Origin: a virus
Lineage: Duplodnaviria; Caudoviricetes
Strand: one strand, 5' to 3'
Length of the DNA stretch: 64,000 nucleotides
IMG/VR virus record: IMGVR_UViG_3300013121_000001
Coordinates: 1-64,000 of that record
Shown here: piece after piece, positions 7,742-63,846 of the stretch
Layout of the letters: every line of letters starts with the position of its first letter
Numbering within the stretch: position 1 is the first letter of the stretch
The notes under the pieces: model-generated
Database searches by the model: none
Seen by the model: the letters and a program-made list of their open reading frames with translations, nothing else
Told to the model about the DNA's origin: nothing
Made by a program: the position numbers and the translations under genes

Positions 7742-7779
7742 AGTTTTATATAAAACATTATGTAATTTTTTAAATAGTT

Positions 7780-7787: not shown

Positions 7788-7804
7788 TTAAAACAAAATA
7801 GTTT

Positions 7805-45416: not shown

Positions 45417-45425
45417 TTGTTTTAT

Positions 45426-46527: not shown

Positions 46528-46781
46528 AACAATCTTTTTATAGGTATAAAGTATGATGCGGATTCTAAAGCAAGGATGGCTTCTTCTTCAAACCAAGCTT
46601 GTTCCATATATTCTTGTGACTTAGGCCAAGGTACTAACACGTAACCTATCTTAGCAAGAGCTAACAGATGCATAATAGATTTTAGATCTGGATCTGTATC
46701 AATGTCATCTATTGAATAACGTAAATTAAGTGCTTTACTTATTAAGCCTATTATGTGTTTAAATCTTGAATTTTTACTCAT
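46524..46781 (-). CDS. Hypothetical protein
   Basis: Overlapping ORF; contains YVLVPWPKSQEYMEQAWF. Confidence 0.6.
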   Translation of the reverse strand: MSKNSRFKHIIGLISKALNLRYSIDDIDTDPDLKSIMHLLALAKIGYVLVPWPKSQEYMEQAWFEEEAILALESASYFIPIKRLL

Positions 46782-47939: not shown

Positions 47940-47957
47940 ATTAAGTTTTGATTTAGG

Positions 47958-48206
47958 TTATTCAATTCCTTCAAATAATTTATCCATTAAAGTAGTAGGA
48001 AAAATAATTGATGAGTACTTATTGTTTTGCTCATTTATTTTTCCTCGTAACTCTATAGTTGTTTTGTGAACTTTTCCTAAAGATCTTTCAACTATTTTAA
48101 ATGATTCAATCATTCCACATAAAACATTATATTCTCTGTTTTTTTCATCAAGTAAATGCAGTTCATCCGAAGTGAACTTAGAGTAATATTTGTTTAGATT
48201 TTCCAT
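47958..48206 (-). CDS. Hypothetical protein
   Basis: ORF with an AT-rich leader, directly downstream of the tRNA-like element. Confidence 0.55.
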   Translation of the reverse strand: MENLNKYYSKFTSDELHLLDEKNREYNVLCGMIESFKIVERSLGKVHKTTIELRGKINEQNNKYSSIIFPTTLMDKLFEGIE

Positions 48207-48225
48207 AATTTATGTATTTGTTTAG

Positions 48226-48383
48226 TAGCCGGGATAGGATTTGAACCTATATTCTCCATCAATTCAGCACCGTCTTGGTCGAGAACTTAATAGATGCTTG
48301 TGCTGCGTAATCTATTAATGCGTCTACCAATGTCTACGGCCCCAGTTTTTATCCCAGCGCCATGACAATTTCGCCACCCGACT
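48226..48383 (-). ncRNA. Enlarged tRNA-like RNA (Leu-type scaffold, no canonical anticodon loop)
   Basis: 7-bp acceptor stem AGTCGGG/CCCGGCT plus discriminator A. Perfect T arm ATAGG-TTCAAAT-CCTAT. Split D arm TGGCGAAATTG...GTAGACGC. 9-bp anticodon-position stem and long variable arm. No encoded CCA. Confidence 0.75.
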
Positions 48384-48393
48384 ATCCTTATTA

Positions 48394-48618
48394 TTACAAA
48401 TAATTTTCTTGTAAGAATTTTATTAATTCTTTTACAGATTCATTGTCTAATTGAATGTATGATTCATTTCCAATAGTTATCTGTAAAGAATGTCCTCGTT
48501 TCATATTTCCACGAAAACTATAAAACCGTACTGTTTCCTCTCTACAAGTAGGTACAGGGTTGTCATCTTCTCTGGGTACTTCTACTTGCCCCGTAAGTTC
48601 AACCAATAGTTTTGACAT
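48394..48618 (-). CDS. Hypothetical protein
   Basis: 74-aa ORF in the operon. Confidence 0.6.
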   Translation of the reverse strand: MSKLLVELTGQVEVPREDDNPVPTCREETVRFYSFRGNMKRGHSLQITIGNESYIQLDNESVKELIKFLQENYL

Positions 48619-48627
48619 AATTTGTTT

Positions 48628-48903
48628 TTAGTTTTCAGCTTTACTATCATATATATATTGCTTCAGATTATTTAATTCAATCTGTAATACCTCAATTTCA
48701 AATTCTACTGCTTCTATTTCAGTAGCAGAGTACTCTTCAAGTACTCTTATTTCGTCTCCAATTTTGTGTCCTGGCTTTACTTGAAAGTATGATTTGCCTT
48801 TAGCATCTTGATATACTTTAGTATACCAAAGTCCATCCTTTGGAAAAGACTCGTTGTCTTTTACTACGTGAACTTTATTATCGGCTGTTATTATTCTGTA
48901 CAT
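48628..48903 (-). CDS. Hypothetical protein with C-terminal short coiled coil
   Basis: Overlaps the end of the aaRS-like gene. Confidence 0.6.
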   Translation of the reverse strand: MYRIITADNKVHVVKDNESFPKDGLWYTKVYQDAKGKSYFQVKPGHKIGDEIRVLEEYSATEIEAVEFEIEVLQIELNNLKQYIYDSKAEN

Positions 48904-49897
48904 ATTTTTCTAAAAAGTTTAAAGCTTTTATTAATCTATTTATACCTATGCCACCACCTAAGGTAATCATAGGATTCTCTTCGAGTACTTTGAAGTACTG
49001 TTTCAGTTCATACTCTACTCTTTTCTCGCCAAACTTATCAATTAAGTTCTGGGCATATTGTCCGCCTTGTATGTTATAAAATCTTTCTCTCATTACTTTA
49101 CTATCATTTGAACGTACTGCCGAACCAATGACTTCCATCATCACTATCTGTCCTGTTGGCATTTCAACAGGTAGTAATACATCTATCTTATAGAATGTAT
49201 CCGTTACAGTATCACCGGTATAATTAATATGCTGCATGTTCCAATACGGCTCGTCTATGCCACGGAAGTTAGTGATTAATACTGGAGTATAATCGCCATC
49301 TTGCGCTAGCCTAGCCTCGTCTATGGAGGTTACAGGGCCATTAGGATTAATGTCGCGTGCAGACATCATTCTAACCTTAGTACCAAAGCCAAAGGCTTTA
49401 ATAATATCTAATAAAGTAGATACTAATTTAGCATATGCTTCGTCTATTCTTGTTCCAGCAATAGCTTCAAAGTCAAGCAATAAAAACTTAGCAAGATGTC
49501 TACCATCAATTATCTTACGATAGTCTTCATGTCTAAAACTTGGAGCTATACAATACATGCCATGATACTTACCAAGTTTAAACTCTAAGTCTGTACGTAT
49601 CAACCACTCCATATACATTTGAGTAGTCTGATCTAACGGAAATTCAATCTTATTTGTAAGATCTTCTATGTTAGTACATACAAAATGCCTAAACATATTT
49701 TCATCTATGGTCGAGTATTCAGTTGGTACTCCATAGGTTACCATGTTTGTACTATCTTCACATGCAGATAGTATAGTAGGAATTAAAGGAGGTGCTACCT
49801 GTACATAATTATATTCTGTGTTGTTAGCAATATATTTTTGCCACAATCTTATCACTTTATTAAAGTCTTTGATACTTATATTTTCGTATACTGCCAT
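48878..49897 (-). CDS. Class IIb aaRS paralogue (AsnRS/AspRS catalytic domain only; archaeal AsnA-like)
   Basis: LDQTTQMYME, motif 2 PSFRHE...RHLAKF...DFE, EVIGSAVR and motif 3 GGGIGINRL. About 339 aa from the ATG at 49897, leaving no room for an OB-fold anticodon domain. Confidence 0.8.
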   Translation of the reverse strand: MAVYENISIKDFNKVIRLWQKYIANNTEYNYVQVAPPLIPTILSACEDSTNMVTYGVPTEYSTIDENMFRHFVCTNIEDLTNKIEFPLDQTTQMYMEWLIRTDLEFKLGKYHGMYCIAPSFRHEDYRKIIDGRHLAKFLLLDFEAIAGTRIDEAYAKLVSTLLDIIKAFGFGTKVRMMSARDINPNGPVTSIDEARLAQDGDYTPVLITNFRGIDEPYWNMQHINYTGDTVTDTFYKIDVLLPVEMPTGQIVMMEVIGSAVRSNDSKVMRERFYNIQGGQYAQNLIDKFGEKRVEYELKQYFKVLEENPMITLGGGIGINRLIKALNFLEKYVQNNNSR

Positions 49898-49940
49898 TAT
49901 ATTATTAAGTTTATATTTATAGAATAATCTTTGTAAGATT

Positions 49941-49967
49941 AATATCCCCACTCTTTGTGGGGATATT
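49941..49967. terminator. Perfect 11-bp hairpin (terminator-like or processing site) upstream of the aaRS-like gene
   Basis: AATATCCCCAC-TCTTT-GTGGGGATATT, 4 nt after a - strand stop codon. Weak U-tract. Confidence 0.5.
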
Positions 49968-49971
49968 GAGT

Positions 49972-50142
49972 TTAATCAAGAAGATTATCTTCTATTGCTT
50001 CTTCAAGCAATGCTAATTTAAGTTCATCGAATTCATTTTGTAATGTATCAAGCTTATTCATAAGTTTAATTGTGTTCAATGTACCTAACAACGAAACGAT
50101 TGAAGTTAAGAATAATCCTAATGCAAGAATGTTAATAACCAT
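49972..50142 (-). CDS. Small membrane-anchored protein (56 aa) missed by the ORF track
   Basis: MVINILALGLFLTSIVSLLGTLNTIKLMNKLDTLQNEFDELKLALLEEAIEDNLLD; fills the intergenic gap. Confidence 0.6.
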   Translation of the reverse strand: MVINILALGLFLTSIVSLLGTLNTIKLMNKLDTLQNEFDELKLALLEEAIEDNLLD

Positions 50143-50143
50143 G

Positions 50144-50461
50144 TTATAATGTATCTATTTCTTCTAAAACTTTTACTACATCGTCGTAGCCATTACGTAA
50201 TAAACAAGTTAATACATAATTATTTAATGCAACTCTTAACGGATCCTGTACTACATGTGATACAGGAATAACTTTATTATTACCATTTAATAAATTCTCT
50301 GGCATATTGTTAATAAGCAATGTTCGTTGCTTAATATCAACTGCTTCAACATACCACAACTGTCCATGATACAGAACAGTAAACCTTTCACCACGCGTAC
50401 ATGTCTTAGACCATATACTAATAAGAAATTCATTCATATTAGTTATATTAGAATTAAGCAA
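50144..50461 (-). CDS. Hypothetical protein
   Basis: Operon ORF. Confidence 0.55.
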   Translation of the reverse strand: MLNSNITNMNEFLISIWSKTCTRGERFTVLYHGQLWYVEAVDIKQRTLLINNMPENLLNGNNKVIPVSHVVQDPLRVALNNYVLTCLLRNGYDDVVKVLEEIDTL

Positions 50462-50775
50462 CCATATCTATTGACAAATCTTAATCCTTTTACTGCAAAC
50501 ATATCACCGTCTTCCTGAATAATTGTATATACTTTACCCGTATTATTATTTATTTCTTCAACATCATCTACATTATTTGGTAAGTATATATATTTATCAA
50601 GTCCATCCAGTTCTTTATGCCTTTCATTTACTTTACATTTACTAACGAATGTATCTGTAATGTCACAATATAATTCTGTTTCTACTTTGTTAACTGTTTG
50701 TTTTACAAATGTAGATTCCAGTTTCTTAAGCTTTCTTTTTAGCTTTTTTAGTTGCTTAGTTTCGTATTTGCTCAT
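50443..50775 (-). CDS. Hypothetical protein
   Basis: Operon ORF ending KGLRFVNRYGCLI. Confidence 0.55.
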   Translation of the reverse strand: MSKYETKQLKKLKRKLKKLESTFVKQTVNKVETELYCDITDTFVSKCKVNERHKELDGLDKYIYLPNNVDDVEEINNNTGKVYTIIQEDGDMFAVKGLRFVNRYGCLILI

Positions 50776-50962
50776 ATTCTTTTGTGGTCTTATTGTATAT
50801 TAACGTATCACCATTAACTATAATGGTCTTCTTCTGAAACGATATGTCATGCACACGCTTCATGTTGTGACATATAAAATCTGGTGCTAGTAATTCTAGT
50901 ACTATAAGTATAACAATCGTTACTATTATATTGGGTATGATTCTATAGAGAGCGTATATCAT
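50756..50962 (-). CDS. Small membrane protein
   Basis: N-terminal hydrophobic helix IIVTIVILIVLELL. Confidence 0.55.
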   Translation of the reverse strand: MIYALYRIIPNIIVTIVILIVLELLAPDFICHNMKRVHDISFQKKTIIVNGDTLIYNKTTKEYEQIRN

Positions 50963-51101
50963 TTATTCTTGGGTTTTGTTTGTTAGAGCTCTTGTCTTCA
51001 ATAAGACTTTTTATAATCCTCATCTGTGACCATATCACAGATATACTTACTATATTTAGTATTAGTAAAAATATTTCTAGTACTGTTAGTTTATATTCCA
51101 T
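50943..51101 (-). CDS. Small membrane protein (52 aa) missed by the ORF track
   Basis: MEYKLTVLEIFLLILNIVSISVIWSQMRIIKSLIEDKSSNKQNPRINDIRSL; TAATG-coupled to the upstream gene. Confidence 0.6.
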   Translation of the reverse strand: MEYKLTVLEIFLLILNIVSISVIWSQMRIIKSLIEDKSSNKQNPRINDIRSL

Positions 51102-51295
51102 TATTTAACTTGTATTACTGTGTTTATTCCATCTTCTTCGATACGCTCACGTATATCGCTTGACGTAAGATCTTTAAAATTAGATCCTTTACATACTACA
51201 CACTTATAGTTACTAACATGATTAATGTTTTCACAATTAATACATAGCTTATAGCTATTCAGAGACTTTTGTATATGTGCTAAATCCACCTGCAT
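51101..51295 (-). CDS. Small zinc-ribbon protein
   Basis: CINC-x10-CVVC. Confidence 0.6.
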   Translation of the reverse strand: MQVDLAHIQKSLNSYKLCINCENINHVSNYKCVVCKGSNFKDLTSSDIRERIEEDGINTVIQVK

Positions 51296-51728
51296 TTTTA
51301 TAACGTTCTTTTAGTTGTGTTTCTATGTGTAATAGATTGTCTGATGTAATATTATAGTAGTTTACATCGTCTATCAACTCTGCTAATGTAGGAGTTTGGT
51401 ATGGATAATTAAACTCTAGTAATTTTCTGAATTGATTCTCAATAATGTGATCTATATCAGATGTACGTTCAATAGTTTCTTTTGGATAGTAATATTTAAA
51501 CTCCCTTGTTAATCTTACCTCAATACTATTTATTAGCTCATCTGATTCGTTGGATATTATATCATAAGCTTTTAACAACGCCTTAGCTATAAAGTTATTC
51601 TCTTTAAATCTATTTAAATCAGCAACATAATTATAGCTGTTCAAATAATTTGCTTTAGCAAGTTCATTCTCATTCTCAAAAAACTCTTTAAGTTTAGATG
51701 CAACTGCTTTAACCTTTCCTACTGACAT
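51255..51728 (-). CDS. Hypothetical helical protein
   Basis: 157-aa ORF downstream of an intergenic hairpin. Confidence 0.6.
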   Translation of the reverse strand: MSVGKVKAVASKLKEFFENENELAKANYLNSYNYVADLNRFKENNFIAKALLKAYDIISNESDELINSIEVRLTREFKYYYPKETIERTSDIDHIIENQFRKLLEFNYPYQTPTLAELIDDVNYYNITSDNLLHIETQLKERYKNAGGFSTYTKVSE

Positions 51729-51759
51729 GCTCTAATCTTTTATATTGTTGTTGTATATA

Positions 51760-51785
51760 GGACAGCGTAGTCTGAAACGCTGTCC
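51760..51785. promoter_or_regulatory. GC-rich intergenic hairpin (terminator or RNA-processing element)
   Basis: GGACAGCGT-AGTCTGAA-ACGCTGTCC in a ~95-nt gap; no strong U-tract. Confidence 0.45.
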
Positions 51786-51823
51786 CGTAAAGTGTTTGGT
51801 ATACTTTCTCAGGAGATACTTTA

Positions 51824-52501
51824 TCATGCCAAAGTCTTTCTATTATTTGGCTCTTTGTTTTCGGTAGTTTTTTCTTTAGCATAGTAAGTTTCTTTTTCCA
51901 TTAAAAACTCTGGAAAGAATCTTGTATCACTAACAATAGTATTGGGTTCTACTGATAGTAGTTTCTCTAGTTTTTTCCATTGATGTTTAAGGGTGTTGTT
52001 ATTTGTTACTACAGCATAAGCTATGCCATCTTTTTGACATAGTTTTTTGTATTCAGGTGTAACTTCATTGTATCTAGATGATGTAATTACATCATAATCT
52101 ACATGGTGCTTATCAGGTATATTATATATGAATATAATATTATTATTGTCGTAATAATAATTACGGCACAGTTCAAATAGATCAGAAAATAAAGAATTAC
52201 CTGTTGCAGTTTTCTTCTTTGATTGATTAAAAGGCACAACGATATATATCTTGTAACGTTTCTCTATTACAGAATCCATCGCATATAGATATATATTTGT
52301 ATTGTAAAATTCAATTTTGATCTTATCAAAAAACTTTGATAAAAACGGTATGAACATTACCGAACTAATATTACCAGCATAGTGTAATATATCTGCTATA
52401 CTACATTGTTCAATTACGTCTTTTAGTGTATCATCATCAGGCAAAATTAATTCTTTTAGATTGGTTCTTACCAGGGGTTGAGTGCTATTGCGCCTGACCA
52501 T
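51824..52501 (-). CDS. Conserved-looking hypothetical protein next to the exonuclease
   Basis: Contains YNIPDKHHVDYDVITSSRYNEVTPEYK; replication-module context. Confidence 0.55.
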   Translation of the reverse strand: MVRRNSTQPLVRTNLKELILPDDDTLKDVIEQCSIADILHYAGNISSVMFIPFLSKFFDKIKIEFYNTNIYLYAMDSVIEKRYKIYIVVPFNQSKKKTATGNSLFSDLFELCRNYYYDNNNIIFIYNIPDKHHVDYDVITSSRYNEVTPEYKKLCQKDGIAYAVVTNNNTLKHQWKKLEKLLSVEPNTIVSDTRFFPEFLMEKETYYAKEKTTENKEPNNRKTLA

Positions 52502-53535
52502 TCTAATTCTTCTTCTTCTTGTTTAGTATAAAACGTTGTTCTATCCTTGTTATGGATACTTTGTTGATATATAAGTTCTTCGATTAAAGTATCAAATCCT
52601 GGTATTACTGGGTAAACTTGAAAGACTTTACTGCCTGTAATAGGACCAGCTATAAAGTGTCTATTGCCTGGAATTATACCATATAATCCTCCTCGTAACA
52701 TTTCTGGGGTACATCTGTATGGCATTGGAGCCACACCTATCTCTTCGTCAAGCGTACTTTCAACAACAAATATGAATGGTTGAATTATAAATCCATCCAA
52801 ATCTATTTGTATCTTAGGACATTCAGCTTCACCTTTTATCAGTGCTTCACATCCCATTGTATATTGTGCTGCTTGTATATCATACCTACGATCTCTAACT
52901 GATTTAGGAAATAATCTTGTAGGTTTAGATAACGTTTTGTAGTCGATTGGTGTAATTGTTTTATTGCGTAAGCTTATGTTTAGTTGATCTAATTCGGCTT
53001 TACATCCTACACCTTTATACGTAAAGTATATGTCAACATGATTATATATTATATACTTATCTCTATCAAATAAATCTTTAATGTGTTTATTAGTAGTTAC
53101 ACTTTGGTATATTCTTACTACTCTATCTAATTCTTCTTCTGTTAAAAGAATATTATCTTTAGTTGTATCAGTAAGTATGTCGTAATACCACTGTACTGTT
53201 TCTCTAAACTTAGGTATGAACGTAGTATCTTTATAGTTAGAGTAGGAATTAGTAGATTCTCTAGCAAAGAGAATATTCTCTTCGGTATCAGGTAAATCAT
53301 TGTCTACTAGAAACTGTACTACTTCGTACATCTTACCCTGTGGTCTTGCCTCAAGCGTACTTACTCTGTCCATTAAAGTATCTAGTCCATATGCTAATGC
53401 TATGTCTACTGCTGTGCCCATAGCGAAGTGTGATTTTCTTGTCTTTGTTCTTTCTCTTTCCTTAAAGAATTTGTGCGGACTGTTTATTAACAGTAAATCT
53501 GATCTACTAATCTCTGGTCTGTCTCTGTAATTCAA
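52468..53535 (-). CDS. PD-(D/E)xK exonuclease (RecE/ExoVIII-like)
   Basis: ISRSDL, FAMGTAVD, CKAELDQL...IDYKT, YDIQAAQY, FIFVVE. Confidence 0.8.
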   Translation of the reverse strand: MNYRDRPEISRSDLLLINSPHKFFKERERTKTRKSHFAMGTAVDIALAYGLDTLMDRVSTLEARPQGKMYEVVQFLVDNDLPDTEENILFARESTNSYSNYKDTTFIPKFRETVQWYYDILTDTTKDNILLTEEELDRVVRIYQSVTTNKHIKDLFDRDKYIIYNHVDIYFTYKGVGCKAELDQLNISLRNKTITPIDYKTLSKPTRLFPKSVRDRRYDIQAAQYTMGCEALIKGEAECPKIQIDLDGFIIQPFIFVVESTLDEEIGVAPMPYRCTPEMLRGGLYGIIPGNRHFIAGPITGSKVFQVYPVIPGFDTLIEELIYQQSIHNKDRTTFYTKQEEEELEWSGAIALNPW

Positions 53536-53872
53536 TTTGTTTTAATATATTTATTAGATCATCAAGCGGTAGTATAGCAAGATTATCTTCATACTTACTT
53601 GATTTCTTATGCAGTACTATAATAGGATAGTCTACCTTATCGTATTCATTTTTTAGTCTGGTGTGAATATCCTTTATTAACTTACTGTAATTTATGCCAC
53701 GAGTATACCCGTTTTTACATTGGATATAGTATGGAACTCTGTCTATATCAACACCACAACTATCTAGTAATCTATTAGATTGTCTTGTTGTTGATGCTTT
53801 ACTAAAGCCTATTGATTTTAGTATACTTACAATATATCGTTCAAACCGATGTCCTTTTTCTCTTACGTCCAT
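53507..53872 (-). CDS. Hjc-like Holliday junction resolvase
   Basis: KGHRFER...GVDI...IQCK...PIIVLHK. Confidence 0.75.
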   Translation of the reverse strand: MDVREKGHRFERYIVSILKSIGFSKASTTRQSNRLLDSCGVDIDRVPYYIQCKNGYTRGINYSKLIKDIHTRLKNEYDKVDYPIIVLHKKSSKYEDNLAILPLDDLINILKQIELQRQTRD

Positions 53873-53874
53873 AA

Positions 53875-54567
53875 TTAAAATGGTAAGTCGTCATCCTCAT
53901 TATACCATGTTATGGGTTCTAATCCATGTCGTATTAATAACTCATTTGCTTGTTGAAATCTAGGTTCAAACTTTAACTCTGGCTGATATGTAGTTGCAGC
54001 TGGGTGTACTGTGACTAAAGCATCATGTCCAATTGGTAGTTCTCCTACTGCATCTAGTGCTTGCTTGCCCCATAACATCCATACAAGATATGGTTTTTGC
54101 TTTAATGTAGAAATTACAGTTTCTGTAAATGGTTTCCATATATGTATGTGAGACCCAGGCTTTTTCTTTTCTACAGATAATGCTGTATTAATTAAGAGAA
54201 CGCCTTGATCTGCTAAATCATAGAAGTTTGTATATCTATAATATCTTTTGTCAAATTCTTTTGACATTGTATCTAGTATGATTCTTAATGATGGAGGTAG
54301 CTTGCCTCCATCTGTAGAGAATGCAAGTCCGTTAGCACTTCCATCGTGATAAGGGTCTTGTTCTACTATTACTACTTTAGTTTTATCATACGAACAATAT
54401 TTAAAAGCGTTGTAAGCTTTATCTGCTGGAGGATAGATTATCTTATTCTCTGATTCTAATGCTAAGTAATCTCTAATCTTATCAAACTCTTCGCTAATTA
54501 TAAAGCTTTCTAATTGTTCATACCACGATGTTCCTAATCTGTCTAACATCAGTTGTTCTAATTCCAT
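53875..54567 (-). CDS. ung: Family 1 uracil-DNA glycosylase
   Basis: KVVIVEQDPYH, ANGLAFS, PPSLR, QGVLLINTALSV, WGK.A, HPA. Confidence 0.9.
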   Translation of the reverse strand: MELEQLMLDRLGTSWYEQLESFIISEEFDKIRDYLALESENKIIYPPADKAYNAFKYCSYDKTKVVIVEQDPYHDGSANGLAFSTDGGKLPPSLRIILDTMSKEFDKRYYRYTNFYDLADQGVLLINTALSVEKKKPGSHIHIWKPFTETVISTLKQKPYLVWMLWGKQALDAVGELPIGHDALVTVHPAATTYQPELKFEPRFQQANELLIRHGLEPITWYNEDDDLPF

Positions 54568-55519
54568 CTAACAAGTTGTTTATTATTGATGTTAAATACT
54601 GTAATCCAAATACTTTTGCTATATCGCTTGGATCTTTTAATTTTTTATCGCCATCGTACAGTGTAGGTAGTATTACATATGGACATGAATAATACTCGCT
54701 GTGTATTTCAGCATTAGTAATGCCAGCATTATCATTATCGTACAGTAATATCATATTTGATCTTGGCATAGCAAGAGCTGTTTCTGAATGTGGCGCATCT
54801 GCCAAGAATCCACATTCTTCTAATACCATTACATCTTTTAATGACGATGTTCGTATTACAAGTTCGTCAGTAACTCCTTTAAATCCCTGTAATTCTTTAC
54901 AGTTAGATCTCCATTTGCTTTTTTTATTTGCAAATGGTCTGTATACTTTATAGTTGTTACTTCCAAAATCGTACACATAGATTGGTTGATGTTCGCTATG
55001 GTTGTATACTTCTATACCATACTTAGTTTCAACCCAAACTGTTTTACAAGGATACACATTGTATTTGTTTAGGGTTTTTTTAGTTATATGATACTGGAAG
55101 AAGTAATCATTATCACTAAAGTCTGAGTATCTTTGATACTTAATAGTACGTGTCTGTACTAATGTGTCTAGATCATATGGTTCTATTTCATTTATTACAG
55201 GTGCTACATCACAATTAATATCAGTATCGTATCCAAGCCCAAGATTATACTCGATGTTTAGATAAGTCAGGGCTTGGGGTAAAGATACCCCAAGCCTATA
55301 TGAACATATAGCAATACAATCTCCGAAGAATCTACTACCATAGTCACAAAACATTAGCACTCCACCACGCATTGTAAACCAACAACCAGGTGTTTTATCT
55401 AATCTAAATGGATTAGTATATCGTATACCAAATATCACTTTAGATTCAAAGAATCTTTCCATTACTTCTATCTGGTTTACTCTTGCTAGTACGTTCTCAA
55501 CTGTAAGTTTCCTATCCAT
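54518..55519 (-). CDS. dnaG: DnaG-like primase (crAss type)
   Basis: N-terminal NPFRLDKTPGC, then SSLKDVMVL, Toprim YDNDNAG and KDPSD. Confidence 0.75.
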   Translation of the reverse strand: MDRKLTVENVLARVNQIEVMERFFESKVIFGIRYTNPFRLDKTPGCWFTMRGGVLMFCDYGSRFFGDCIAICSYRLGVSLPQALTYLNIEYNLGLGYDTDINCDVAPVINEIEPYDLDTLVQTRTIKYQRYSDFSDNDYFFQYHITKKTLNKYNVYPCKTVWVETKYGIEVYNHSEHQPIYVYDFGSNNYKVYRPFANKKSKWRSNCKELQGFKGVTDELVIRTSSLKDVMVLEECGFLADAPHSETALAMPRSNMILLYDNDNAGITNAEIHSEYYSCPYVILPTLYDGDKKLKDPSDIAKVFGLQYLTSIINNLLDGIRTTDVRQIRNIVV

Positions 55520-55520
55520 A

Positions 55521-56402
55521 CTACCAACCTGAGCTTGATGGTTTAGGTCTGTCTATTACAGTGTTTTCTTGTGGCATAGAAGGATTATATTTTCTAAGTG
55601 TGAAGTCACCATTAGAAGTTTTATTGTCCTTCCATGCTCTTTTATCAAGTGCGTCTCTTAGTCTATTATAATTAGTAGTATCTTCACTCATTGGCATGGA
55701 ATATACACTTTGATAACTTGCATCTTCAGTTTCTTTGATACCCAACAAGGCTTTAAATCCTCTTGGATCTCTGTCTTCTCTCTGAAGATTGTCTTTAATT
55801 ATTGAATTAATTTCCTTCACATCTCCCTTAGCAATTTTTATGAATGGAGTTTCTAGATCTATCTCTTGAATATAGAGCCATCGCTCTAATAATGTTAGAA
55901 GATCTTTCTCTCCTTGCATAGCAATGTGTGTTTTAGCATCGTTAAAATCTAATCGAGTCTTTCCTTTTCGTGCTGCTGTATGTGCAGCAACATCTCCACC
56001 AGGAACCCACTCCATCTCACAGCTGTTAGTATTTACATACCACACTCCTTTAACACTTCCATCATCGTTATTAATAATATCTTTCTTGTCTCTTGCCCAG
56101 AAAGAATAGCAAATGTATTCTACATTTGCAGTTTCATCATTTATCAAGTTTTTATGTTGAAATATATTTCCAGACTCATCTGTTGTGTATACAAGTTTAC
56201 ACCACATATCTAGCTTATAACTAGTAGATCCTTGAGGATCAGTAAATGTATACTTGATTGGATTTTCAAAGTTCTTCGCACCTCTTGTTACTAACATAAG
56301 TTGCTCATTGGTTGGATTAAACGCAATAGGCACTAAGTTAGCAACTCCAACAAATAAGTTTCTTTGAAACGATTTCTTTTCTTTACCTTGAATCTTTGCC
56401 AT
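55521..56402 (-). CDS. Putative ssDNA-binding protein
   Basis: LFVGVANLVPIAFNPT..., and position between the ATPase and primase as in crAss-like replication modules. Function is inferred from context. Confidence 0.4.
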   Translation of the reverse strand: MAKIQGKEKKSFQRNLFVGVANLVPIAFNPTNEQLMLVTRGAKNFENPIKYTFTDPQGSTSYKLDMWCKLVYTTDESGNIFQHKNLINDETANVEYICYSFWARDKKDIINNDDGSVKGVWYVNTNSCEMEWVPGGDVAAHTAARKGKTRLDFNDAKTHIAMQGEKDLLTLLERWLYIQEIDLETPFIKIAKGDVKEINSIIKDNLQREDRDPRGFKALLGIKETEDASYQSVYSMPMSEDTTNYNRLRDALDKRAWKDNKTSNGDFTLRKYNPSMPQENTVIDRPKPSSSGW

Positions 56403-56404
56403 GA

Positions 56405-57163
56405 CTAATTACTAGTTTGTGGTGTAATGTTATTAGCCTTATTAATTGAGCTAACGATTAATGAGAAATCATTAGGTATTCTAATATTGTCAAACGTACC
56501 TTCTGGTGTACGACAAGTGTCATTACCATCACCAGCAGTACGTAGATAACCAACAGGTCTTCCATTTACAATATTAACTCCCGAATAAAATGTGTATTCA
56601 GATCCACCTTCTACATGCATTTTTGTAGCCATTCTTCCAAGCACTCTAAGCTTTTGGCTAGTTGTACCTTCAGCATTTCTATATTCTTCAGTGTGTCCAA
56701 TTAAAAATGCTATTGGATTATCATCGAGTTTAATACTAAACTCTGGCGTATCAATGCCTTTCTTCATTGCTTTGACATCGTCAATAATATTAGAGTACTT
56801 TGTAGGAATTCTCATTAATGGTCCCGGTGATACTTTAGTACCGTACAACTCCAGATGATTTGCTGGTCTAGCAAATGTAGGATTCTTTTTATCTGCGTTG
56901 AACCAAACATACTCACCAGGAGTAAGTCCTTTGATTCCAAAGGACTTACCTGAGCCTTCCTTACCAAGTATAAGTACTAATTCAAAGCCTAAATCTTTTA
57001 GACGTTCGATGAACAAATACAAATCAACACCATAGTCTGTCCAATCATCATGTTGTGCCTTGCCTTTCTTCTCTAGAATCTCAGCATGCTGTACATTTTG
57101 AATAGCATTTAGTGTATCTACTATAATAGACTTGATATTGTATTGTTTTTTGTTCTTTGACAT
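56405..57163 (-). CDS. P-loop ATPase (Sak4/AAA_24-like), segment-permuted
   Basis: Walker A GKEGSGKS, Walker B-like IIVDT placed N-terminal to it, FLIGHTE, and RTPEGTF...IPNDF. Confidence 0.7.
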   Translation of the reverse strand: MSKNKKQYNIKSIIVDTLNAIQNVQHAEILEKKGKAQHDDWTDYGVDLYLFIERLKDLGFELVLILGKEGSGKSFGIKGLTPGEYVWFNADKKNPTFARPANHLELYGTKVSPGPLMRIPTKYSNIIDDVKAMKKGIDTPEFSIKLDDNPIAFLIGHTEEYRNAEGTTSQKLRVLGRMATKMHVEGGSEYTFYSGVNIVNGRPVGYLRTAGDGNDTCRTPEGTFDNIRIPNDFSLIVSSINKANNITPQTSN

Positions 57164-57164
57164 A

Positions 57165-57560
57165 CTATTTTTTATTTAGTAATTCGTTATCAAGTTTAAG
57201 TTTTGTATCTGTAAAAGCTGTCATCATAATATAAAACATACTTAGATAGCTTTCTACTAGTTCTTTAATGTTTGCCGCATTAGGTTTGTTATTGATGAAG
57301 TACATGGACTTTCGTTCCATTATCTCATCAAGTATTTTTGGTATCATAAGCATTGCTGCAGCACTCCACGGCTCTGCTTGTATTTGTTTGGTTGAATCCA
57401 AAGGATCCGTTTTTAATCCACCATTCATTGGCATATTTACAAATCGGTACACGAGTTTTAATAACTCTGGATTTATGCCTGGATTGACGGGAGGCGTTGT
57501 AGTTTCAGGTTTTTTGTCTTCCAATTTAAACGTTGATTTTTGGTCTGTAAAGCTAAACAT
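57165..57560 (-). CDS. Hypothetical protein
   Basis: Operon ORF between the helicase and the ATPase. Confidence 0.6.
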   Translation of the reverse strand: MFSFTDQKSTFKLEDKKPETTTPPVNPGINPELLKLVYRFVNMPMNGGLKTDPLDSTKQIQAEPWSAAAMLMIPKILDEIMERKSMYFINNKPNAANIKELVESYLSMFYIMMTAFTDTKLKLDNELLNKK

Positions 57561-58611
57561 AATTAGCGTAGTTTATTGTTTGTGGATTTGGTAGTTCTTC
57601 AAACCAGCTATAGGTAAACCAAGTGCCCACTCTAACTCTGGCCCTACCAAATCTGTTCTTTAATATTGTTAAACTTCTATAACAGTCTGATCTGTCTCCA
57701 AACTTTTTAAGATCATATCTGTTGTGTTCAGTTATACCATATCGTTGTGGCATATCAAGTGCAATTACTACCATATAATCTCTTGCTATAGCCTTGTTAT
57801 CGCCGAGAGTACTTAGACTACATTCATTCTTATTAAACTTATTGTACTCTGCACTTTCACCTTCAGCTGCTTGTTGATGTACTGCACACACTGAATACCC
57901 ATAATACTTAATGCATTCACCAAGTAAATATTCACTTGACATTCTGCCCATACACTTCCTTAAGTCTGAAGTTTTATCTGTAGAATGAAGTAAATTTAGG
58001 TGGTCAACAATTATAATAGTATAATCATTGTTTGATACGTAACTATCAAACTCTTCACCTGGTTCTACCTCTACATCTTTAGAGTAAAACTTACCGTGTC
58101 TTGCTGCATGTTGTCTAATTATAGACATAATACCTTCCGGCGTAGATACACCAGCAAATATTTCTAGCACACTTGCAAGACCATTAAAATACCCACGAAG
58201 CTCTTCTATCTTTGACAAGATAGTACTATCTAATGGAGTATCCAAACTATTTAATTGATTATAATCAACTGTGATATTGTATTTATCAGATAGTTCTGCA
58301 ATTACTAGACTATCAATAAATTGTTCTTTTGTTTCTTCTAAACAGAAATACAATATCTTTAACTTAAAGGCATTGCTTGTCTTTCTATACTTGGTGTAAT
58401 AGTAAAATGGTATTCTTACAAAGAGAAACTTTGTAAGTGGAGTTTTACCCACATTAGTATAGGATGTTACACAATAATAAGTACTCTTTACTATACCTAT
58501 TAAATGCTTTGAAAGTCTTGGTAAAAATTCTTTAAATGGAATACAATTTAAACCTCCAGACTTTGCAACTTCTATACTGTTTTTGTACTGAAGTATTCTT
58601 TTGTCTAACAT
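57553..58611 (-). CDS. dnaB: SF4 (DnaB-like) replicative helicase
   Basis: SYTNVGKT (Walker A), YFCLEE, IIIVDHL (Walker B), VHQQ, ILKNRFG. Confidence 0.8.
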   Translation of the reverse strand: MLDKRILQYKNSIEVAKSGGLNCIPFKEFLPRLSKHLIGIVKSTYYCVTSYTNVGKTPLTKFLFVRIPFYYYTKYRKTSNAFKLKILYFCLEETKEQFIDSLVIAELSDKYNITVDYNQLNSLDTPLDSTILSKIEELRGYFNGLASVLEIFAGVSTPEGIMSIIRQHAARHGKFYSKDVEVEPGEEFDSYVSNNDYTIIIVDHLNLLHSTDKTSDLRKCMGRMSSEYLLGECIKYYGYSVCAVHQQAAEGESAEYNKFNKNECSLSTLGDNKAIARDYMVVIALDMPQRYGITEHNRYDLKKFGDRSDCYRSLTILKNRFGRARVRVGTWFTYSWFEELPNPQTINYANYV

Positions 58612-59132
58612 TACACATCGTATATAGATATATCTTTAAATGTATCATCAGACTTTGTGTACCATTCGTACAAATCCCCAGTCCTTATATCTCTATTAGA
58701 TATCTTACCATCGCCTTGAGGTAGAATAAAGAACTCAGGTTTACGTCCTGTTCTTCCTTTCTCAATGCAGTCTTGTAAGTATCTACGAGTAGCAGTCATT
58801 ACTCTTTCTTTCATATCAGAAGTATTAGATACTTTCGTCATAAACAAATTCATTCTGTCAATACAGTTTTGTTTATTACCTAAACCCATACTTAATCCGT
58901 ATGTATTAAGAATATTGAACAGGTCTCGCCACTCATCTATCCACAATTCTACTGCTTCTAATGGCTTGACCTGTTCGGTTTCTTTCAATAGATAGGCTGT
59001 CTCCTTCATAGGATGTAATCTATCATGTAGCTCTATCTCACCTAGTAAATCTAGGTGTAATAACAAACACTTCATTGCTAATTCATTTGAGTCTACAATC
59101 TGAATTAGTTGTTGCGTTGTTAACATTACCAA
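58611..59132 (-). CDS. Hypothetical protein upstream of the helicase
   Basis: TAATG-coupled to the helicase; contains WIDEWRDLF and ATRRYL. Confidence 0.6.
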   Translation of the reverse strand: MVMLTTQQLIQIVDSNELAMKCLLLHLDLLGEIELHDRLHPMKETAYLLKETEQVKPLEAVELWIDEWRDLFNILNTYGLSMGLGNKQNCIDRMNLFMTKVSNTSDMKERVMTATRRYLQDCIEKGRTGRKPEFFILPQGDGKISNRDIRTGDLYEWYTKSDDTFKDISIYDV

Positions 59133-60052
59133 TTACCTTGGTTTTCTAATATATATATAAATTTCTTTCTGGGTTTTAGCCCAGTGTGTAATTCAAGTAA
59201 TTGAATTAATTCCATTGTACCCTCTACTACATCAGACTTATCGGACTTAATAGTAGATTTCAATATGCTGATAGCTTGTTTTGTATCATCAATTTGTGCA
59301 ACGGTAGAACTTAAATTCGTTACATATCTACCGTCTAATGCTTGGTACTCCTTCAATGCTTCCTCTCTTTGTTCGAGTGCAACTCGAATACGTTCATTCT
59401 TTTCTGGATGCATTAACGATCTCTTTTCAATTGCCTTGATACGTGCAATTGTATTGTTTTTTGTTTTAATCATATCATTGACTTCTTTTAATCTTAAAGT
59501 ATCATCTATCTTTTGCCTTTCAAGTTCTTTAAGATTGTTCTCTAATTCTAACAGGCGTGTTACATTAGTAATTATATTAGTACATATAGGATGTAGTTCT
59601 ATTAACAAATCATTAAGATCTGCTATTGCATTATACAATTTATCCTTATCCTCTACTTCACTATTCTTATCTAATGATAGTAGTGTGTTACCTATTATCA
59701 TCGTAGTAGGATTACCATTAAATCTACGTGCCTTACTACTCCTAGTTATTTTACTTAATACACCAGGTTTAAAGGCAGTGTTAACAGTAATTGTTTCTAG
59801 ACAATCAGTGCACTGTCTAGCTACTAATTCCACTATAGAATACATATCACTTTTAGATTGAAATGTACCTTCTGATTTTATATCAGTCATGTATCTTGGT
59901 ACACGTAGTGGATCTTTTCTAAGTTTTTTCGCTAACTTTTTTCTCTGTGTTAGTCCTCCAAATATTGGAATAGTCAAGAATTTATTCAGTTCTTCAAATA
60001 CAACAGACGCTAATCCTTTATCTATAACACCTGTAGCATCAGCTGTTTTCAT
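59126..60052 (-). CDS. Coiled-coil protein; possibly the C-terminal part of a frameshift fusion with 60184-61257
   Basis: Long heptad regions. The frame stays open upstream to 60268 with no ATG/GTG/TTG. Confidence 0.6.
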   Translation of the reverse strand: MKTADATGVIDKGLASVVFEELNKFLTIPIFGGLTQRKKLAKKLRKDPLRVPRYMTDIKSEGTFQSKSDMYSIVELVARQCTDCLETITVNTAFKPGVLSKITRSSKARRFNGNPTTMIIGNTLLSLDKNSEVEDKDKLYNAIADLNDLLIELHPICTNIITNVTRLLELENNLKELERQKIDDTLRLKEVNDMIKTKNNTIARIKAIEKRSLMHPEKNERIRVALEQREEALKEYQALDGRYVTNLSSTVAQIDDTKQAISILKSTIKSDKSDVVEGTMELIQLLELHTGLKPRKKFIYILENQGNW

Positions 60053-60176
60053 CAGTACAGCAGATACATATTCAATAAAGAATTTATCTTCTTTTAGCTT
60101 TAAATGTTCCGAAACATTTAAAGCAAGTAGCTTTATATCAGCTACAATCTTTTTACTATCCTCTGTTAATTCCTTT

Positions 60177-60211
60177 GGGTTAACTACGGCGTTAACCCCG
60201 GAGGAGGGTTT
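60177..60211 (-). promoter_or_regulatory. Candidate -1 ribosomal frameshift signal
   Basis: A_AAC_CCT heptamer (60211-60205), 6-nt spacer, hairpin GGGTTAAC-GCCGTA-GTTAACCC. Confidence 0.5.
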
Positions 60212-61257
60212 ACGTTCCCACCTGGAGGAGGAGGAGGAGGAGGAGTTGTATTTACAGGAGGAGTTGTATTAGTGATAGGCGCAGGACCACGAGCTGTATT
60301 TGCAGCTTGCGCACTAGTACCAATGAAGTTTTGTTGCGCTGAATTGTAAGATATCCAACGCATCAACTTCATTAACCACACTAATTCACCGCTGAGTAAA
60401 CCTAACGCACTTGCGAATATATCCATAAGAATCATTGCAAGTGTAATAAGAGTACGATTACTGAAATCAGTAGAGAACTGATTTACTTTTCTTGCAAACA
60501 AGTCACTTGAAATATTGGGATCCAAGTTTGCTAATGGAATCTCAAACGTAAGTAATTGATTCCAGTGAAAGTCTAACGCATAAATACCTGCGCCAAATAT
60601 AATAGACATAGCGAATGCAAAGATCTCTTCATATGTAGCACCTTTAGCATTGTAGCAATAGATTATTGCAGCAATACCAAGAGCTGCACATATAGTAAAG
60701 AAAGTCATACTGGTTGCAGCAGCACTAGTTAAGCCACCAGTGTATGACATATATAAAAACATTGCAATAGTTAATAGTGTACCTACAATAAATACAACAG
60801 GTAACGGTTTAATATTTTTCCTTTCCTGTTTTGTTATAGGATCTATTTTGCTTTCTATAAAGAAAGCATAGTTCTTTGCAATGTTTGGATCGAAGTCAGG
60901 ACGTTTTAATGCTGTTGTATCATACATCATCATTAACAATAAAGGCATCAAATAAGTTGATACCGTACCAACTAATTGCATTGTAATAACCAATGCTTCG
61001 GATATGTCTGTCCATCCAACTGATACCATTCTATCATGCATTGTCTCACCAACAAACCATGAAAATAATAAAGAAGCAATTAGCAATGCCAAAGACCCAC
61101 CTACTGCAAGAAATTTTGCAGGATTCCCCATAGCATTTGCTACGATTTTCCACATCTTCATCTGGTTCTTTACATCACCAGATTCGTAGTAAGCACTTAT
61201 GATAGCACCTATAACTACGAGACCTACAAGAATTAATCCTAATATTGTTAGTGTCAT
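60184..61257 (-). CDS. Multi-pass membrane protein with Pro-rich C-terminal linker
   Basis: About 7 hydrophobic segments. Probable start MTLTIL at 61257 (TAATG-coupled to polA). Ends ...TTPPPPPPPGGNVNPPPGLTP. Confidence 0.75.
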   Translation of the reverse strand: MTLTILGLILVGLVVIGAIISAYYESGDVKNQMKMWKIVANAMGNPAKFLAVGGSLALLIASLLFSWFVGETMHDRMVSVGWTDISEALVITMQLVGTVSTYLMPLLLMMMYDTTALKRPDFDPNIAKNYAFFIESKIDPITKQERKNIKPLPVVFIVGTLLTIAMFLYMSYTGGLTSAAATSMTFFTICAALGIAAIIYCYNAKGATYEEIFAFAMSIIFGAGIYALDFHWNQLLTFEIPLANLDPNISSDLFARKVNQFSTDFSNRTLITLAMILMDIFASALGLLSGELVWLMKLMRWISYNSAQQNFIGTSAQAANTARGPAPITNTTPPVNTTPPPPPPPGGNVNPPPGLTP

Positions 61258-63167
61258 TACTTTATCCAGGTTTTGTTTATGTGCATAGAACATTCCATTT
61301 CTACGTCATTGGTTAGAAATTCATTTGCAGCATTTATTATAATTCTTTTAGCTGCTTCTGCAATTTCAGGAGTGTTTTCTGGTACCTCAAATACTATCTC
61401 ATCGTATACTGTCATACGTATTTTACAATCATACTCTGGTATTGTATATGCAAAATACTCATAAAGTCTAATGAGACATAACTTTAACATGTCTGCATTT
61501 GTTGATTGCATTGGCAGGTTAAATAGTTGACGTACAAGTCTGTGTCTATTATGATAATATACTCCAGCTTTCTTGTGTTCATTATACTCTTCTAATATAA
61601 GAAGTCTATTAGATACATCATTAGCTCTAGCTATTCCATTCATCATTGATTGATTTACAAATGATTCTAAATAGTCTAATGCTGAAACTAATCTTTCACG
61701 AATAGCTTTATAAACTTTTTTAGCTATTGGTCTTTGTATGTTTAGTACTTCTGCTATACGTGCATCTGTTGCACCATAAATTATACCAAACAAAACTCGC
61801 TTGTGTATAGATCTTTTATCTGCATTCACAGTACTTGATACTGTAAATCCTGGATCCTCGGTTATAATTCTATATGATACTGTAGCTAGTTCAGAGTGTA
61901 AGTCTAAGTGTCCTGACACTCCAGCCTTTAATACAGGGTCATTACTTGCTGATGCTAAGATACGCAATTCTGCTCCACTTAAATCACAAGTTACCATAGA
62001 ATAACCAGGTCTTGCTACAAAACATTTTCGTATCTCTGGTTTTTGTGGTATGTTTTGTAGGTTCACATAAGTCTTTTTATTTGTTTTCTTATGTGATATA
62101 TCTGATGATATTAATCTACCTGTAGCAGATATATTTTGCTGTATATTAGTACGTATTATACCATTGTTTACAGTACTTAGAAATGTAGTTCCATAAGTAC
62201 TTACTAATTTAGCATACTCTTTTACTTTTAATAAAAGGTGTATTAAACTTTTTAAGTCTGCATTAGTTCCATAAGATGAATACTTTTCCAATGTTTGCTT
62301 TCTTGTATTCTTTATTAATGGATCTATTGCCTGCATTAGAGTTAATAGTTGTGTTGGACTATTTAGATTAATGTATCTTAAATCATCCTTTGATTTAACT
62401 TTGAAATCTTTTGAGTACTCAACCTCATTAAGTCTATACTTAATATATATCTTTTCTAAGAAGCTATATACATTACTTAAATATCTTAAGTGTTCTTGTG
62501 TAAAGTGCTCTGTGTTTCTTTCGTGTTGTTCCACGTCATAACATATACCCTCCTCACACATTTCTGCAAGTATTGGCGTTAGCCTGTTTTCTAATCTAAT
62601 ACACCCTATCTCTTGTATTCCTAACTCTTCGCATAGATCTTTTTCAAGTGCTTGTTGTCCAGCTACAATATCTTCAAGATAAATTATATCGTTTACCATA
62701 TATTCTATCTGTTCCTTGCTAAGCTCTTGTCCAAATTTAAATGAAGTTTGAAGTTCCTTGCTTATGTTGTTACCAGTATAAGTGTATACTAAATTCTTGT
62801 ATGATCTGTCAAAGTTCATGCCCTTAGTAAGTACACATTCTGTTTGATATGTATCTATTACATTCCATGTACCAACCTTACAATTCATGTAGTATTTAAT
62901 GAATGGTAAATCAAATAATAAGTTGTGTCCTATTATTGTTTTTGAAGACAGCTCACACATCAACATATATATTTCAGATGTTGATTCTGTCATAGGAATT
63001 AAGAATTGCGTACTCTTATTTCCTAGTGTGATCGCAACTATTTGATCTTCAAGATAGTTTAAACCTTCAGTTTCTATATCAAGACATACTGTGTCTACTG
63101 ATTCAAGCCAATCTATGATCTCCCAAACAGCGCAACTAACAATGGTGTTATTTGTGCTTTTGTACAT
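61257..63167 (-). CDS. polA: Family A DNA polymerase with 3'-5' exonuclease
   Basis: ExoI CLDIETEG, ExoII GHNLLFD, ExoIII YMVND. Polymerase motifs TGRL, LQNIP, A DLSGAELRILA, B RSIHKRVLFGIIYG, C VYDE. Confidence 0.92.
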   Translation of the reverse strand: MYKSTNNTIVSCAVWEIIDWLESVDTVCLDIETEGLNYLEDQIVAITLGNKSTQFLIPMTESTSEIYMLMCELSSKTIIGHNLLFDLPFIKYYMNCKVGTWNVIDTYQTECVLTKGMNFDRSYKNLVYTYTGNNISKELQTSFKFGQELSKEQIEYMVNDIIYLEDIVAGQQALEKDLCEELGIQEIGCIRLENRLTPILAEMCEEGICYDVEQHERNTEHFTQEHLRYLSNVYSFLEKIYIKYRLNEVEYSKDFKVKSKDDLRYINLNSPTQLLTLMQAIDPLIKNTRKQTLEKYSSYGTNADLKSLIHLLLKVKEYAKLVSTYGTTFLSTVNNGIIRTNIQQNISATGRLISSDISHKKTNKKTYVNLQNIPQKPEIRKCFVARPGYSMVTCDLSGAELRILASASNDPVLKAGVSGHLDLHSELATVSYRIITEDPGFTVSSTVNADKRSIHKRVLFGIIYGATDARIAEVLNIQRPIAKKVYKAIRERLVSALDYLESFVNQSMMNGIARANDVSNRLLILEEYNEHKKAGVYYHNRHRLVRQLFNLPMQSTNADMLKLCLIRLYEYFAYTIPEYDCKIRMTVYDEIVFEVPENTPEIAEAAKRIIINAANEFLTNDVEMECSMHINKTWIK

Positions 63168-63846
63168 AGGGTCTTATCTTCTCTACTTCCGTAAATGTTA
63201 CTAACTTTGCTACGTGCCAGTTGTTTGGATCTCTTAACATACTTGCTGGTATTTGATCGTATGTGTTAGGGATAGTCATCAATGATCTAATCATTGGATT
63301 ATCACCTATTACTTCCTGTATATTAGGAATGTAATTAAATCTATAGGCTTGTGCATGAAACTTTTTTGGAGGTTCATTTAGATCTATAAGTTCTAATGAG
63401 CCATAGGTTCCACCACATACTACATAATCTGTAGACGTCATTGAATTGTTCTGTGGCTTACGTTTAAATATTAAGCCATACTCAGTTAATACTACTGATG
63501 CTTCCGTTTCATCATACGCTAACATTAAAGTATCTTCACAAGTTAGTGTAACATCCTTAGCTTCTATACCTTGCCTCTTATTAAGTGCAGTACACACTAA
63601 ATCACACACTTGCTGTTCAGTAATTGTATCAGTAAGTATGGACAGCACACCATTAGATGGTGCATCTAATGGTGTTTTGTGTTCAGATGATGCTATTATA
63701 ATAATAGAATCAGCATTTAATATTTGTCCTGTAACTACACTAAACTCTGTTATGTATTTCTTACATGACTTACCTGTTGCCATATCTTTATGAAAGTATG
63801 ACATATAGTTTCCTATCTGTATTCTATCTTTTAGTTTTATGTTCAT
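63148..63846 (-). CDS. Hypothetical protein
   Basis: 232-aa ORF overlapping the polA start. Confidence 0.6.
   Translation of the reverse strand: MNIKLKDRIQIGNYMSYFHKDMATGKSCKKYITEFSVVTGQILNADSIIIIASSEHKTPLDAPSNGVLSILTDTITEQQVCDLVCTALNKRQGIEAKDVTLTCEDTLMLAYDETEASVVLTEYGLIFKRKPQNNSMTSTDYVVCGGTYGSLELIDLNEPPKKFHAQAYRFNYIPNIQEVIGDNPMIRSLMTIPNTYDQIPASMLRDPNNWHVAKLVTFTEVEKIRPYVQKHK

Follow-up and report, generated by a model that had tools for sequence, protein, structure and literature searches.

A candidate programmed -1 frameshift linking a membrane protein to a coiled-coil domain in the replication operon of an uncultivated phage

Two overlapping reading frames downstream of polA

The stretch of DNA analysed here (the window) is 64,000 nt long and comprises the first 64 kb of the 102,158-bp IMG/VR virus record IMGVR_UViG_3300013121_000001, a metagenome assembly with direct terminal repeats that represents an uncultivated phage. 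On its minus strand, next to polA, lie two genes that form the subject of this report, one for a multi-pass membrane protein and one for a coiled-coil protein encoded in the -1 frame relative to it. An earlier note, made from the sequence alone, had proposed that the two are joined by programmed ribosomal frameshifting into the -1 frame (-1 PRF).

The membrane open reading frame (ORF; 60184-61257, minus strand) extends from the ATG at 61257 to a TAG at 60186-60184 and encodes 357 aa. Its start overlaps the stop codon of polA (TAATG). Hydropathy indicates about seven hydrophobic segments or transmembrane (TM) helices, and the positively charged loops suggest that the protein is probably oriented N-out/C-in with a cytoplasmic C terminus, so that the C-terminal linker and any domain fused to it would be cytoplasmic. 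The gene ends in poly-proline, as the earlier note had stated: a Thr/Asn/Pro-rich low-complexity linker (60187-60300, minus strand), which includes a (CCT)6CCA tract, is followed by a tail conserved in the frame of this gene (the 0 frame), N-PPP-G-L-T-P, and the C terminus reads ...TTPPPPPPPGGNVNPPPGLTP*. An AlphaFold2 (AF2) model of the protein has a predicted local distance difference test score (pLDDT) of 72.5, with residues 316-357 disordered, and a Foldseek search of this model against the PDB gave no match.

The -1 frame is open from 60268 to a TAA at 59128-59126 that overlaps the ATG of the next gene. It reads ...PSSGVNAVVNPKELTEDSKKIV... and is the frame of ORF 59126-60052. The two ORFs overlap over 60268-60184, and the -1 frame is open throughout the overlap. 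Past the membrane stop there is a gap of 131 nt (60183-60053, minus strand) with the composition of coding sequence, in which the -1 frame remains open and carries no ATG, GTG or TTG; the first canonical start is the ATG at 60052-60050. This arrangement, too, is as the earlier note had described it. In the AF2 model of the downstream part, residues ~185-342 of the 360-aa read form a coiled-coil hairpin (pLDDT > 90), while the helical N-terminal region is of low confidence. A Foldseek comparison of this model with the PDB and an Atlas search returned only generic coiled-coil look-alikes and hairpins, and neither the membrane nor the coiled-coil protein matches a family in Pfam and PHROG searches. 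Gene callers place arbitrary ATG or TTG starts on the coiled-coil gene (308 and 334 aa).

The candidate shift site

The overlap contains a single in-frame canonical X_XXY_YYZ heptamer, A_AAC_CCT (60211-60205, minus strand; 0-frame codons GTA AAC CCT), a candidate slippery site that also contains the tetramer C_CCT and is followed immediately by two more proline codons. It ends 18 nt ahead of the 0-frame stop. A 6-nt spacer (CCTCCG, 60204-60199) separates it from a perfect 8-bp hairpin with a 6-nt loop (60198-60177), the arms of which are GGGTTAAC (60198-60191) and GTTAACCC (60184-60177). The TAG is enclosed by this hairpin, with TA in the loop and G in the 3′ arm. Heptamer, spacer and stop-bearing hairpin had all been proposed in the earlier note and were confirmed on the sequence, and the 6 nt between heptamer and structure lie within the ~5-9 nt spacing of a -1 PRF cassette. 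Three extra UCC/GGA pairs can extend the hairpin, in which case the 40 nt past the heptamer fold with -14.9 kcal/mol; the centroid structure, consisting of the 8-bp hairpin alone, has -12.4 kcal/mol. The hairpin has z = -2.1 compared with dinucleotide shuffles and ranks in the lowest 0.6% among the 40-nt windows of the operon.

In-frame heptamers of this form occur 72 times in the 20,518 codons of the window (0.35% per codon), and the -1 frame that follows them has a median length of 3 codons. After A_AAC_CCT it runs for 359 codons (60208-59126, minus strand); only this site and one ordinary gene overlap exceed 60 codons among the 72. Elsewhere in the window, the gene at 47328-47939 (minus strand) carries an in-frame A_AAA_AAA 5 codons ahead of its stop, and the -1 frame holds the next gene (46774-47331, minus strand). 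That gene has its own ATG within an ATGA overlap, so the pair seems to overlap in the ordinary way.

Cytosine at the Y positions is atypical, as the earlier note had pointed out. In E. coli reporters, AAACCCU gave only 0.06-0.7% shifting (0.057% with no stimulator, 0.080% with the IS911 stimulators and 0.72% with the IS3 pseudoknot), and CCCAAAC gave 0.18, 0.15 and 0.49% in the same three settings (PMC4066793). Values for CCCCCCA were 0.12-1.8%, at a background of 0.04-0.07%, and C_CC.U is among six shift-prone tetramers that respond to a pseudoknot in that host (PMC4066793).

Coding signal across the start-less gap

Coding frame was assessed by codon-usage log-odds trained on the other genes of the window. 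Read in the downstream frame, 60181-60053 scored +18.3, compared with 17.5 +/- 5.0 for real in-frame windows of 129 nt and with -22 and -30 off-frame. The first 51 nt past the stop already scored +8.8 in the downstream frame (in-frame mean 6.9 +/- 3.1). Within the overlap (60268-60185), the membrane frame scored +25.5 versus -19.1 for the -1 frame. The scores on the two sides therefore place the change of coding frame between about 60210 and 60184.

The ATG at 60052 probably encodes an internal methionine. It aligns with an Ile in the closest coiled-coil homologue (P0003, 53% identical), the alignment of which begins 26 residues N-terminal of the window Met (LAL.V.EHLKLKE.K.FI.Y), with matches at 15 of the 24 residues upstream of the ATG. 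A start-context matrix was built from 35 ATG starts, and gave 0.9 +/- 2.7 for true starts and -3.7 +/- 3.2 for internal positions. On this scale the ATG at 60052 scored -6.8, and two near-cognate codons within the gap, ATT 60148 and ATA 60136, scored -7.9 and -9.5, respectively.

Conservation of the arrangement in related sequences

Relatives were sought by word-based and exhaustive hidden Markov model searches, which revealed a small family. Comparison at the DNA level covers three lineages, namely the window and two contigs (L002 and L003), and five further lineages are represented by proteins only. L002 was found by a scan of genome contigs and L003, a JGI contig, by one metagenome scan; another metagenome scan was empty. 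No relative was found among INPHARED phages by DNA and protein searches, or in IMG/VR by scans with single proteins and alignments, and a sample of 400 more genomes from the order to which L002's genome belongs contained no other copy. The closest relative is an 81-kb ENA contig, which carries both P0003 and a membrane homologue (P0005).

Membrane homologues range from 84% (P0005) and 76% (P0006) through 42% (P0007) to 30-38% identity (P0008-P0011), and one more is a fragment (P0012). Those of full length are all 330-360 aa, and nine of them, from ENA, Logan, NCBI and JGI assemblies, terminate at the same tail. Across all homologues (P0001, P0005-P0012, P0020), a hypervariable P/T/S/N-rich linker is followed by a fixed tail, [ND]-P-x-x-G-x-T-[PI]*, at an overall identity of ~30%, and in the P0009 cluster the number of TPP repeats changes in frame while the tail is constant. 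Because the 0-frame tail that follows the shift site is conserved, the short (357-aa) form is clearly functional in its own right, which fits a two-product design.

The gene order polA, membrane ORF, coiled-coil ORF, ~170-aa ORF and DnaB-like helicase is kept in all three DNA lineages. Their membrane proteins are 30-44% identical, the ~170-aa ORF and helicase of L002 and L003 are 53-54% identical to those of the window, and the coiled-coil proteins of L003 and L002 show 22% (E = 1e-9) and ~20% identity. In 3/3 lineages, the coiled-coil ORF lies in frame -1 with respect to the membrane ORF. L002 (membrane ORF 6001-7005, on a contig binned in a 'Neisseriaceae' metagenome-assembled genome, MAG) has a -1 frame open from 6945 to 8111, an overlap of 6945-7005, and the identical A_AAC_CCT at 6966-6972, 30 nt ahead of the stop. 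Directly after this heptamer (spacing 0-3 nt) is a 15-bp stem, CCGCCGCCUCCAAAU/AUUUGGAGGUGGGGG, with -26.8 kcal/mol and z = -4.2 (0/200 shuffles as stable; rank 0.9%). L003 (membrane ORF 694-1683) has a -1 frame open from 1602 to 2939, an overlap of 1602-1683, and two in-frame heptamers, C_CCA_AAC (1644-1650, 30 nt ahead of the stop) and C_CCC_CCA (1659-1665). A stem, CAGUCCCCCC/GGG.AGGGACUG, starts 4 nt past the first of these. Over the three lineages the distance from heptamer to 0-frame stop is 18-30 nt; in phage cassettes the slip site lies on average 26 nt ahead of the stop (PRFect; PMC10885494). An apparent similarity between the gap peptides of the window and L003 gained no support from BLASTP and was not used.

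All 46 other genes checked in the three loci start with ATG, and only the coiled-coil ORF lacks its own ATG. Upstream of its first ATG, the frame is free of stops for 72, 65 and 102 codons in the window, L002 and L003; for the 46 other genes the corresponding extension has a median length of 3.5 codons and reaches at most 20. Beyond the 0-frame stop, 43, 44 and 74 codons are open, at an off-frame stop frequency of ~0.09-0.12 per codon, and the joint chance of this is roughly 1e-7. As these extensions far exceed those of the other genes, the stretch from the membrane stop to the first ATG appears to be kept open, and thus translated, in three lineages, yet it contains no ATG. The L003 gap leans toward coding in the downstream frame. 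The first canonical start of the coiled-coil ORF is a TTG in both L002 (7026) and L003 (1767), with internal-like context scores of -3.9 and -6.0; true starts scored 1.0 +/- 2.3 in that comparison.

A programmed -1 frameshift as the favoured interpretation

The simplest account of the sequence data would be a -1 shift within the last ~10 codons of the membrane gene. A genuine, conserved -1 PRF near the 3′ end of this gene, giving products of 357 aa and 710 aa, is given a probability of about two in three. The interpretation of the earlier note has gained comparative support, since the same -1 relation, an in-frame heptamer and the synteny are found in L002 and L003.

By default, most ribosomes would read N-P-P-P-G-L-T-P and stop at TAG 60184, producing a 357-aa protein with ~7 TM helices and a cytoplasmic Pro-rich tail. 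A minority would slip back one base on A_AAC_CCU (60211-60205), where perfect re-pairing (CCU to CCC) would be available to the A-site tRNA-Pro. At the heptamer the ribosome would be slowed by the 8-bp hairpin that lies 6 nt further on, and poor Pro-Pro bond formation at PPPG, a motif that begins at the shift codon, may add to the slowing. Shifted ribosomes would read ...NVNPSSGVNAVVNPK..., cross the start-less gap and enter the coiled-coil ORF, with a predicted junction peptide of ...GGNVNPSSGVNAVVNPK. A slip at the heptamer gives a computed length of 351 + 359 = 710 aa for the long product, so the sizes of ~357 and ~710 aa predicted in the earlier note hold. In this product the Pro-rich linker would tie the coiled-coil hairpin to the membrane domain; if so, a Pro-rich linker ending in a stop makes sense, because a domain sometimes follows it. 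That ribosomes shift, at which base and how often, is deduced from the sequence. The rate is probably low, and either the long form is needed at ~1%, or the context (host tRNAs, hairpin and PPPG stall motif) raises the rate.

A number of observations weigh against this interpretation. No in-frame fused homologue was found among 1.84 billion representatives, all 7 matches being 108-360 aa, nor did a word search for longer forms yield one; the earlier note had asked whether homologues are fused or keep the signal, and only the second was seen, in L002 and L003. The heptamers are weak in E. coli (at most ~0.7%), and the tRNAs of the actual host may differ. Past the heptamer it is the 0-frame tail, G-x-T-[PI]*, that is conserved, and not the -1 frame, and (CCN)n codons by themselves account for part of the -1 openness in the overlaps. 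The downstream structures are non-homologous, with spacings of 6 nt (window), 0-3 nt (L002) and 4 nt (L003), and the values for the L003 stem (-18 kcal/mol, z = -2.3, rank 4%) come from a folding window picked after inspection. BLASTP of the window against L003 detected no conservation in the N-terminal ~100 residues of the downstream ORF. Lastly, the L002 TTG, 21 nt past the stop, could initiate translation.

A variant, in which the shift is driven more by proline stalling than by a classical two-tRNA slip, is quite improbable. It would draw on the observation that the only C_CCN context of the linker directly precedes more proline codons in 3/3 lineages (C_CCU CCU CCG GGG, encoding NPPPG, in the window; C_CCU CCG CCG in L002; C_CCC CCA in L003). 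A ribosome stuck at the Pro-Pro step, which depends on elongation factor P (EF-P), would escape with its tRNA-Pro one base back, reading Ser-Ser. If this were true, the coiled-coil-bearing share of the membrane protein would report host EF-P or proline status, and the site would be a recoding switch in a phage replication module that senses the nascent chain and an elongation factor.

Alternative explanations

The two genes might instead be separate, with translation of the coiled-coil protein beginning on its own, near the upstream stop, at a codon that is near-cognate or otherwise not ATG. Codons that could serve are ATT 60148 or ATA 60136 (window), TTG 7026 (L002) and TTG 1767 (L003). Such a start might be coupled to the end of translation of the membrane gene, the terminating ribosome opening the local RNA structure. 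This is unlikely. The two TTGs lie 21 nt (L002) and 84 nt (L003) past the stop, but both score as internal codons, and that of L003 aligns with a Leu position in the window (TTA) and in P0003. The window has no ATG, GTG or TTG over the 131 nt, and for start context its ATT and ATA rank among the bottom 10% and 4% of internal positions. P0003 has been called with a start 26 codons upstream of the window Met, which favours independent initiation, as do the failure to find a fused homologue, the weakness of the heptamers in E. coli and a conserved 0-frame C-terminal tail of the kind expected of a stand-alone protein. However, ATG is used by 46/46 other genes checked, the gap is coding-like from the first codon past the stop, and the recurrence of the -1 relation together with an in-frame heptamer in 3/3 lineages is left unexplained.

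It is very improbable that the coiled-coil gene starts where its frame first has an ATG (window 60052, L002 7140, L003 1908). The preceding 131-224 nt would then not code for protein but form a structured spacer (for example an attenuator or internal promoter), or else be left over from an earlier fusion. The region does contain stable structure, and in every lineage the part of the protein that is deeply conserved is preceded by an ATG, but such gaps are unique within otherwise overlapping operons, and this one has in-frame codon usage. Although the context of the L003 ATG is start-like (90th percentile), that of ATG 60052 is poor, and P0003 keeps the peptide upstream of 60052 without having that Met. 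The 43, 44 and 74 open codons from stop to ATG also stand against at most 20 upstream of other genes, with off-frame stops at ~0.1 per codon. An independent start at 60052, raised in the earlier note as a possible objection, is thus not supported, given the Ile and upstream residues of P0003, the coding gap, the poor context and the long open extensions.

The other objection raised there was a one-base assembly error. That such an error, in assembly or in sequencing, or else a recent inactivating mutation, broke one 710-aa gene in two is very unlikely, with a probability close to nil: the record is a metagenome assembly and its G4 and CCT tracts are short and repetitive, but the site has no long homopolymer, nine full-length homologues from independent assemblies (ENA, Logan, NCBI, JGI) end at the same point after the low-complexity linker and share the terminal tail, L002 and L003 show the identical split and -1 relation, and no fused form was found.

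Three further mechanisms were considered and set aside. Transcriptional slippage is unlikely, there being no A/T run. Read-through of the TAG was rejected, as the 0 frame stops again 6 codons on, and so was a bypass of the T4 gene 60 type, for which there is no landing codon (60183-60053 contains no CCG to match the pre-stop CCG).

The replication operon and its mode of initiation

The gene pair belongs to a replication operon on the minus strand (63846 to 44228), in which genes are tightly packed and neighbours overlap (TAATG/ATGA) or are a few nt apart. The order is polA (61257-63167, minus strand; PF00476 and a 3′-5′ exonuclease domain), the membrane ORF, the coiled-coil ORF, a 173-aa ORF (58611-59126, minus strand) and a DnaB-like helicase, then a Sak4-like ATPase, primase and exonuclease. 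The earlier note had placed the pair between polA and the helicase, and this location stands, except that the 173-aa ORF intervenes before the helicase. This ORF has no assigned family and is well conserved (53% identity to L003 2941-3438 over 110 aa). A role of the pair in organising replication at the membrane is suggested only by its conserved position between polA and helicase.

Leaders are A/T-rich and carry no Shine-Dalgarno (SD) motif, and ATG is nearly universal as start codon (window minus strand 44228-63846 and plus strand 92-44200; L002; L003). Since SD motifs are entirely absent from these genes, the host ribosome probably does without SD pairing here. An SD-less leader pattern is described for Bacteroidia (PMC6847099, PMC7797042), and by analogy the leaders suggest a host with Bacteroidia-type initiation. 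L002 is probably a phage-like contig misbinned in a 'Neisseriaceae/Burkholderiales' MAG, because its leaders match those of the window.

G-rich, SD-like runs occur just past the 0-frame stop in L002 (GGAGGUGGGGG, 6973-7037) and L003 (GGGAGGG, 1655-1695). They pair with the upstream C-rich proline codons and have no in-frame start at a usable distance. Arguments from SD motifs (GAGGA before ATT 60148, and the GGAGG runs after the L002 and L003 stops) were dropped, the leaders being SD-less. On the plus strand, the window also contains one ORF of 5,038 codons (24620-39736), flanked by other very long ORFs (92-6097, 9869-14617, 14617-17982, 20478-24620 and 40058-44200).

Significance and comparison with known systems

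While -1 PRF itself is known, the gene family and its context are new. If the shift is real, it would add a conserved -1 PRF site that falls outside the tail-chaperone paradigm and belongs to the replication module of an SD-less clade of uncultivated phages, and weak C-rich heptamers beside poly-Pro codons would be usable for programmed recoding. It would also predict a membrane-tethered coiled-coil protein at a fixed low ratio to the free membrane anchor, which offers a tangible way into the question of how such phages might arrange their replication at the membrane. Current gene calls would miss ~50-100 translated codons and the fusion product.

One close parallel in arrangement is the tail assembly chaperone pair G/GT, found in lambda-like phages and many other tailed ones (the lambda heptamer is G_GGA_AAG). 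There, too, the ORFs overlap, the second ORF is in the -1 frame and lacks a start, slippage takes place a few tens of nt ahead of the 0-frame stop, the main product is a short form and the minor one is extended at the C terminus, and the arrangement is kept while the sequence diverges. The genes described here are unrelated to G/GT, and lie in a replication module between polA and a DnaB-like helicase rather than between major tail and tape-measure genes. Their short form is a polytopic membrane protein with no PHROG or Pfam match, and the heptamer is of the weak X_XXC_CCN or C_CCA_AAC type.

The OrfA-OrfAB frameshift of IS3/IS911 and the tau/gamma frameshift of E. coli dnaX likewise combine an X_XXY_YYZ heptamer, a spacer and a downstream stem, and yield products in a fixed ratio; dnaX is, in addition, a replication gene. 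In contrast to the site described here, their heptamer is A_AAA_AAG, and dnaX and IS911 have an upstream SD-like stimulator, whereas the present genes are SD-less. The shift in dnaX truncates the protein, while the one proposed here would extend it.

In phage phi29, replication at the membrane is organised by p16.7, a DNA-binding protein with a coiled coil and a membrane anchor. The predicted long product would follow the same logic, with a membrane anchor, a linker and a cytoplasmic coiled coil encoded among replication genes. The two have no similarity in sequence or fold, and p16.7 has a single TM segment and is made without recoding, so that a p16.7-like function here would be guilt by association only. 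With the bypass of T4 gene 60, the locus shares a 0-frame stop set in a hairpin just past a Gly/Pro-rich nascent peptide; it differs in having no matching landing codon, and a simple -1 shift explains the frame relation.

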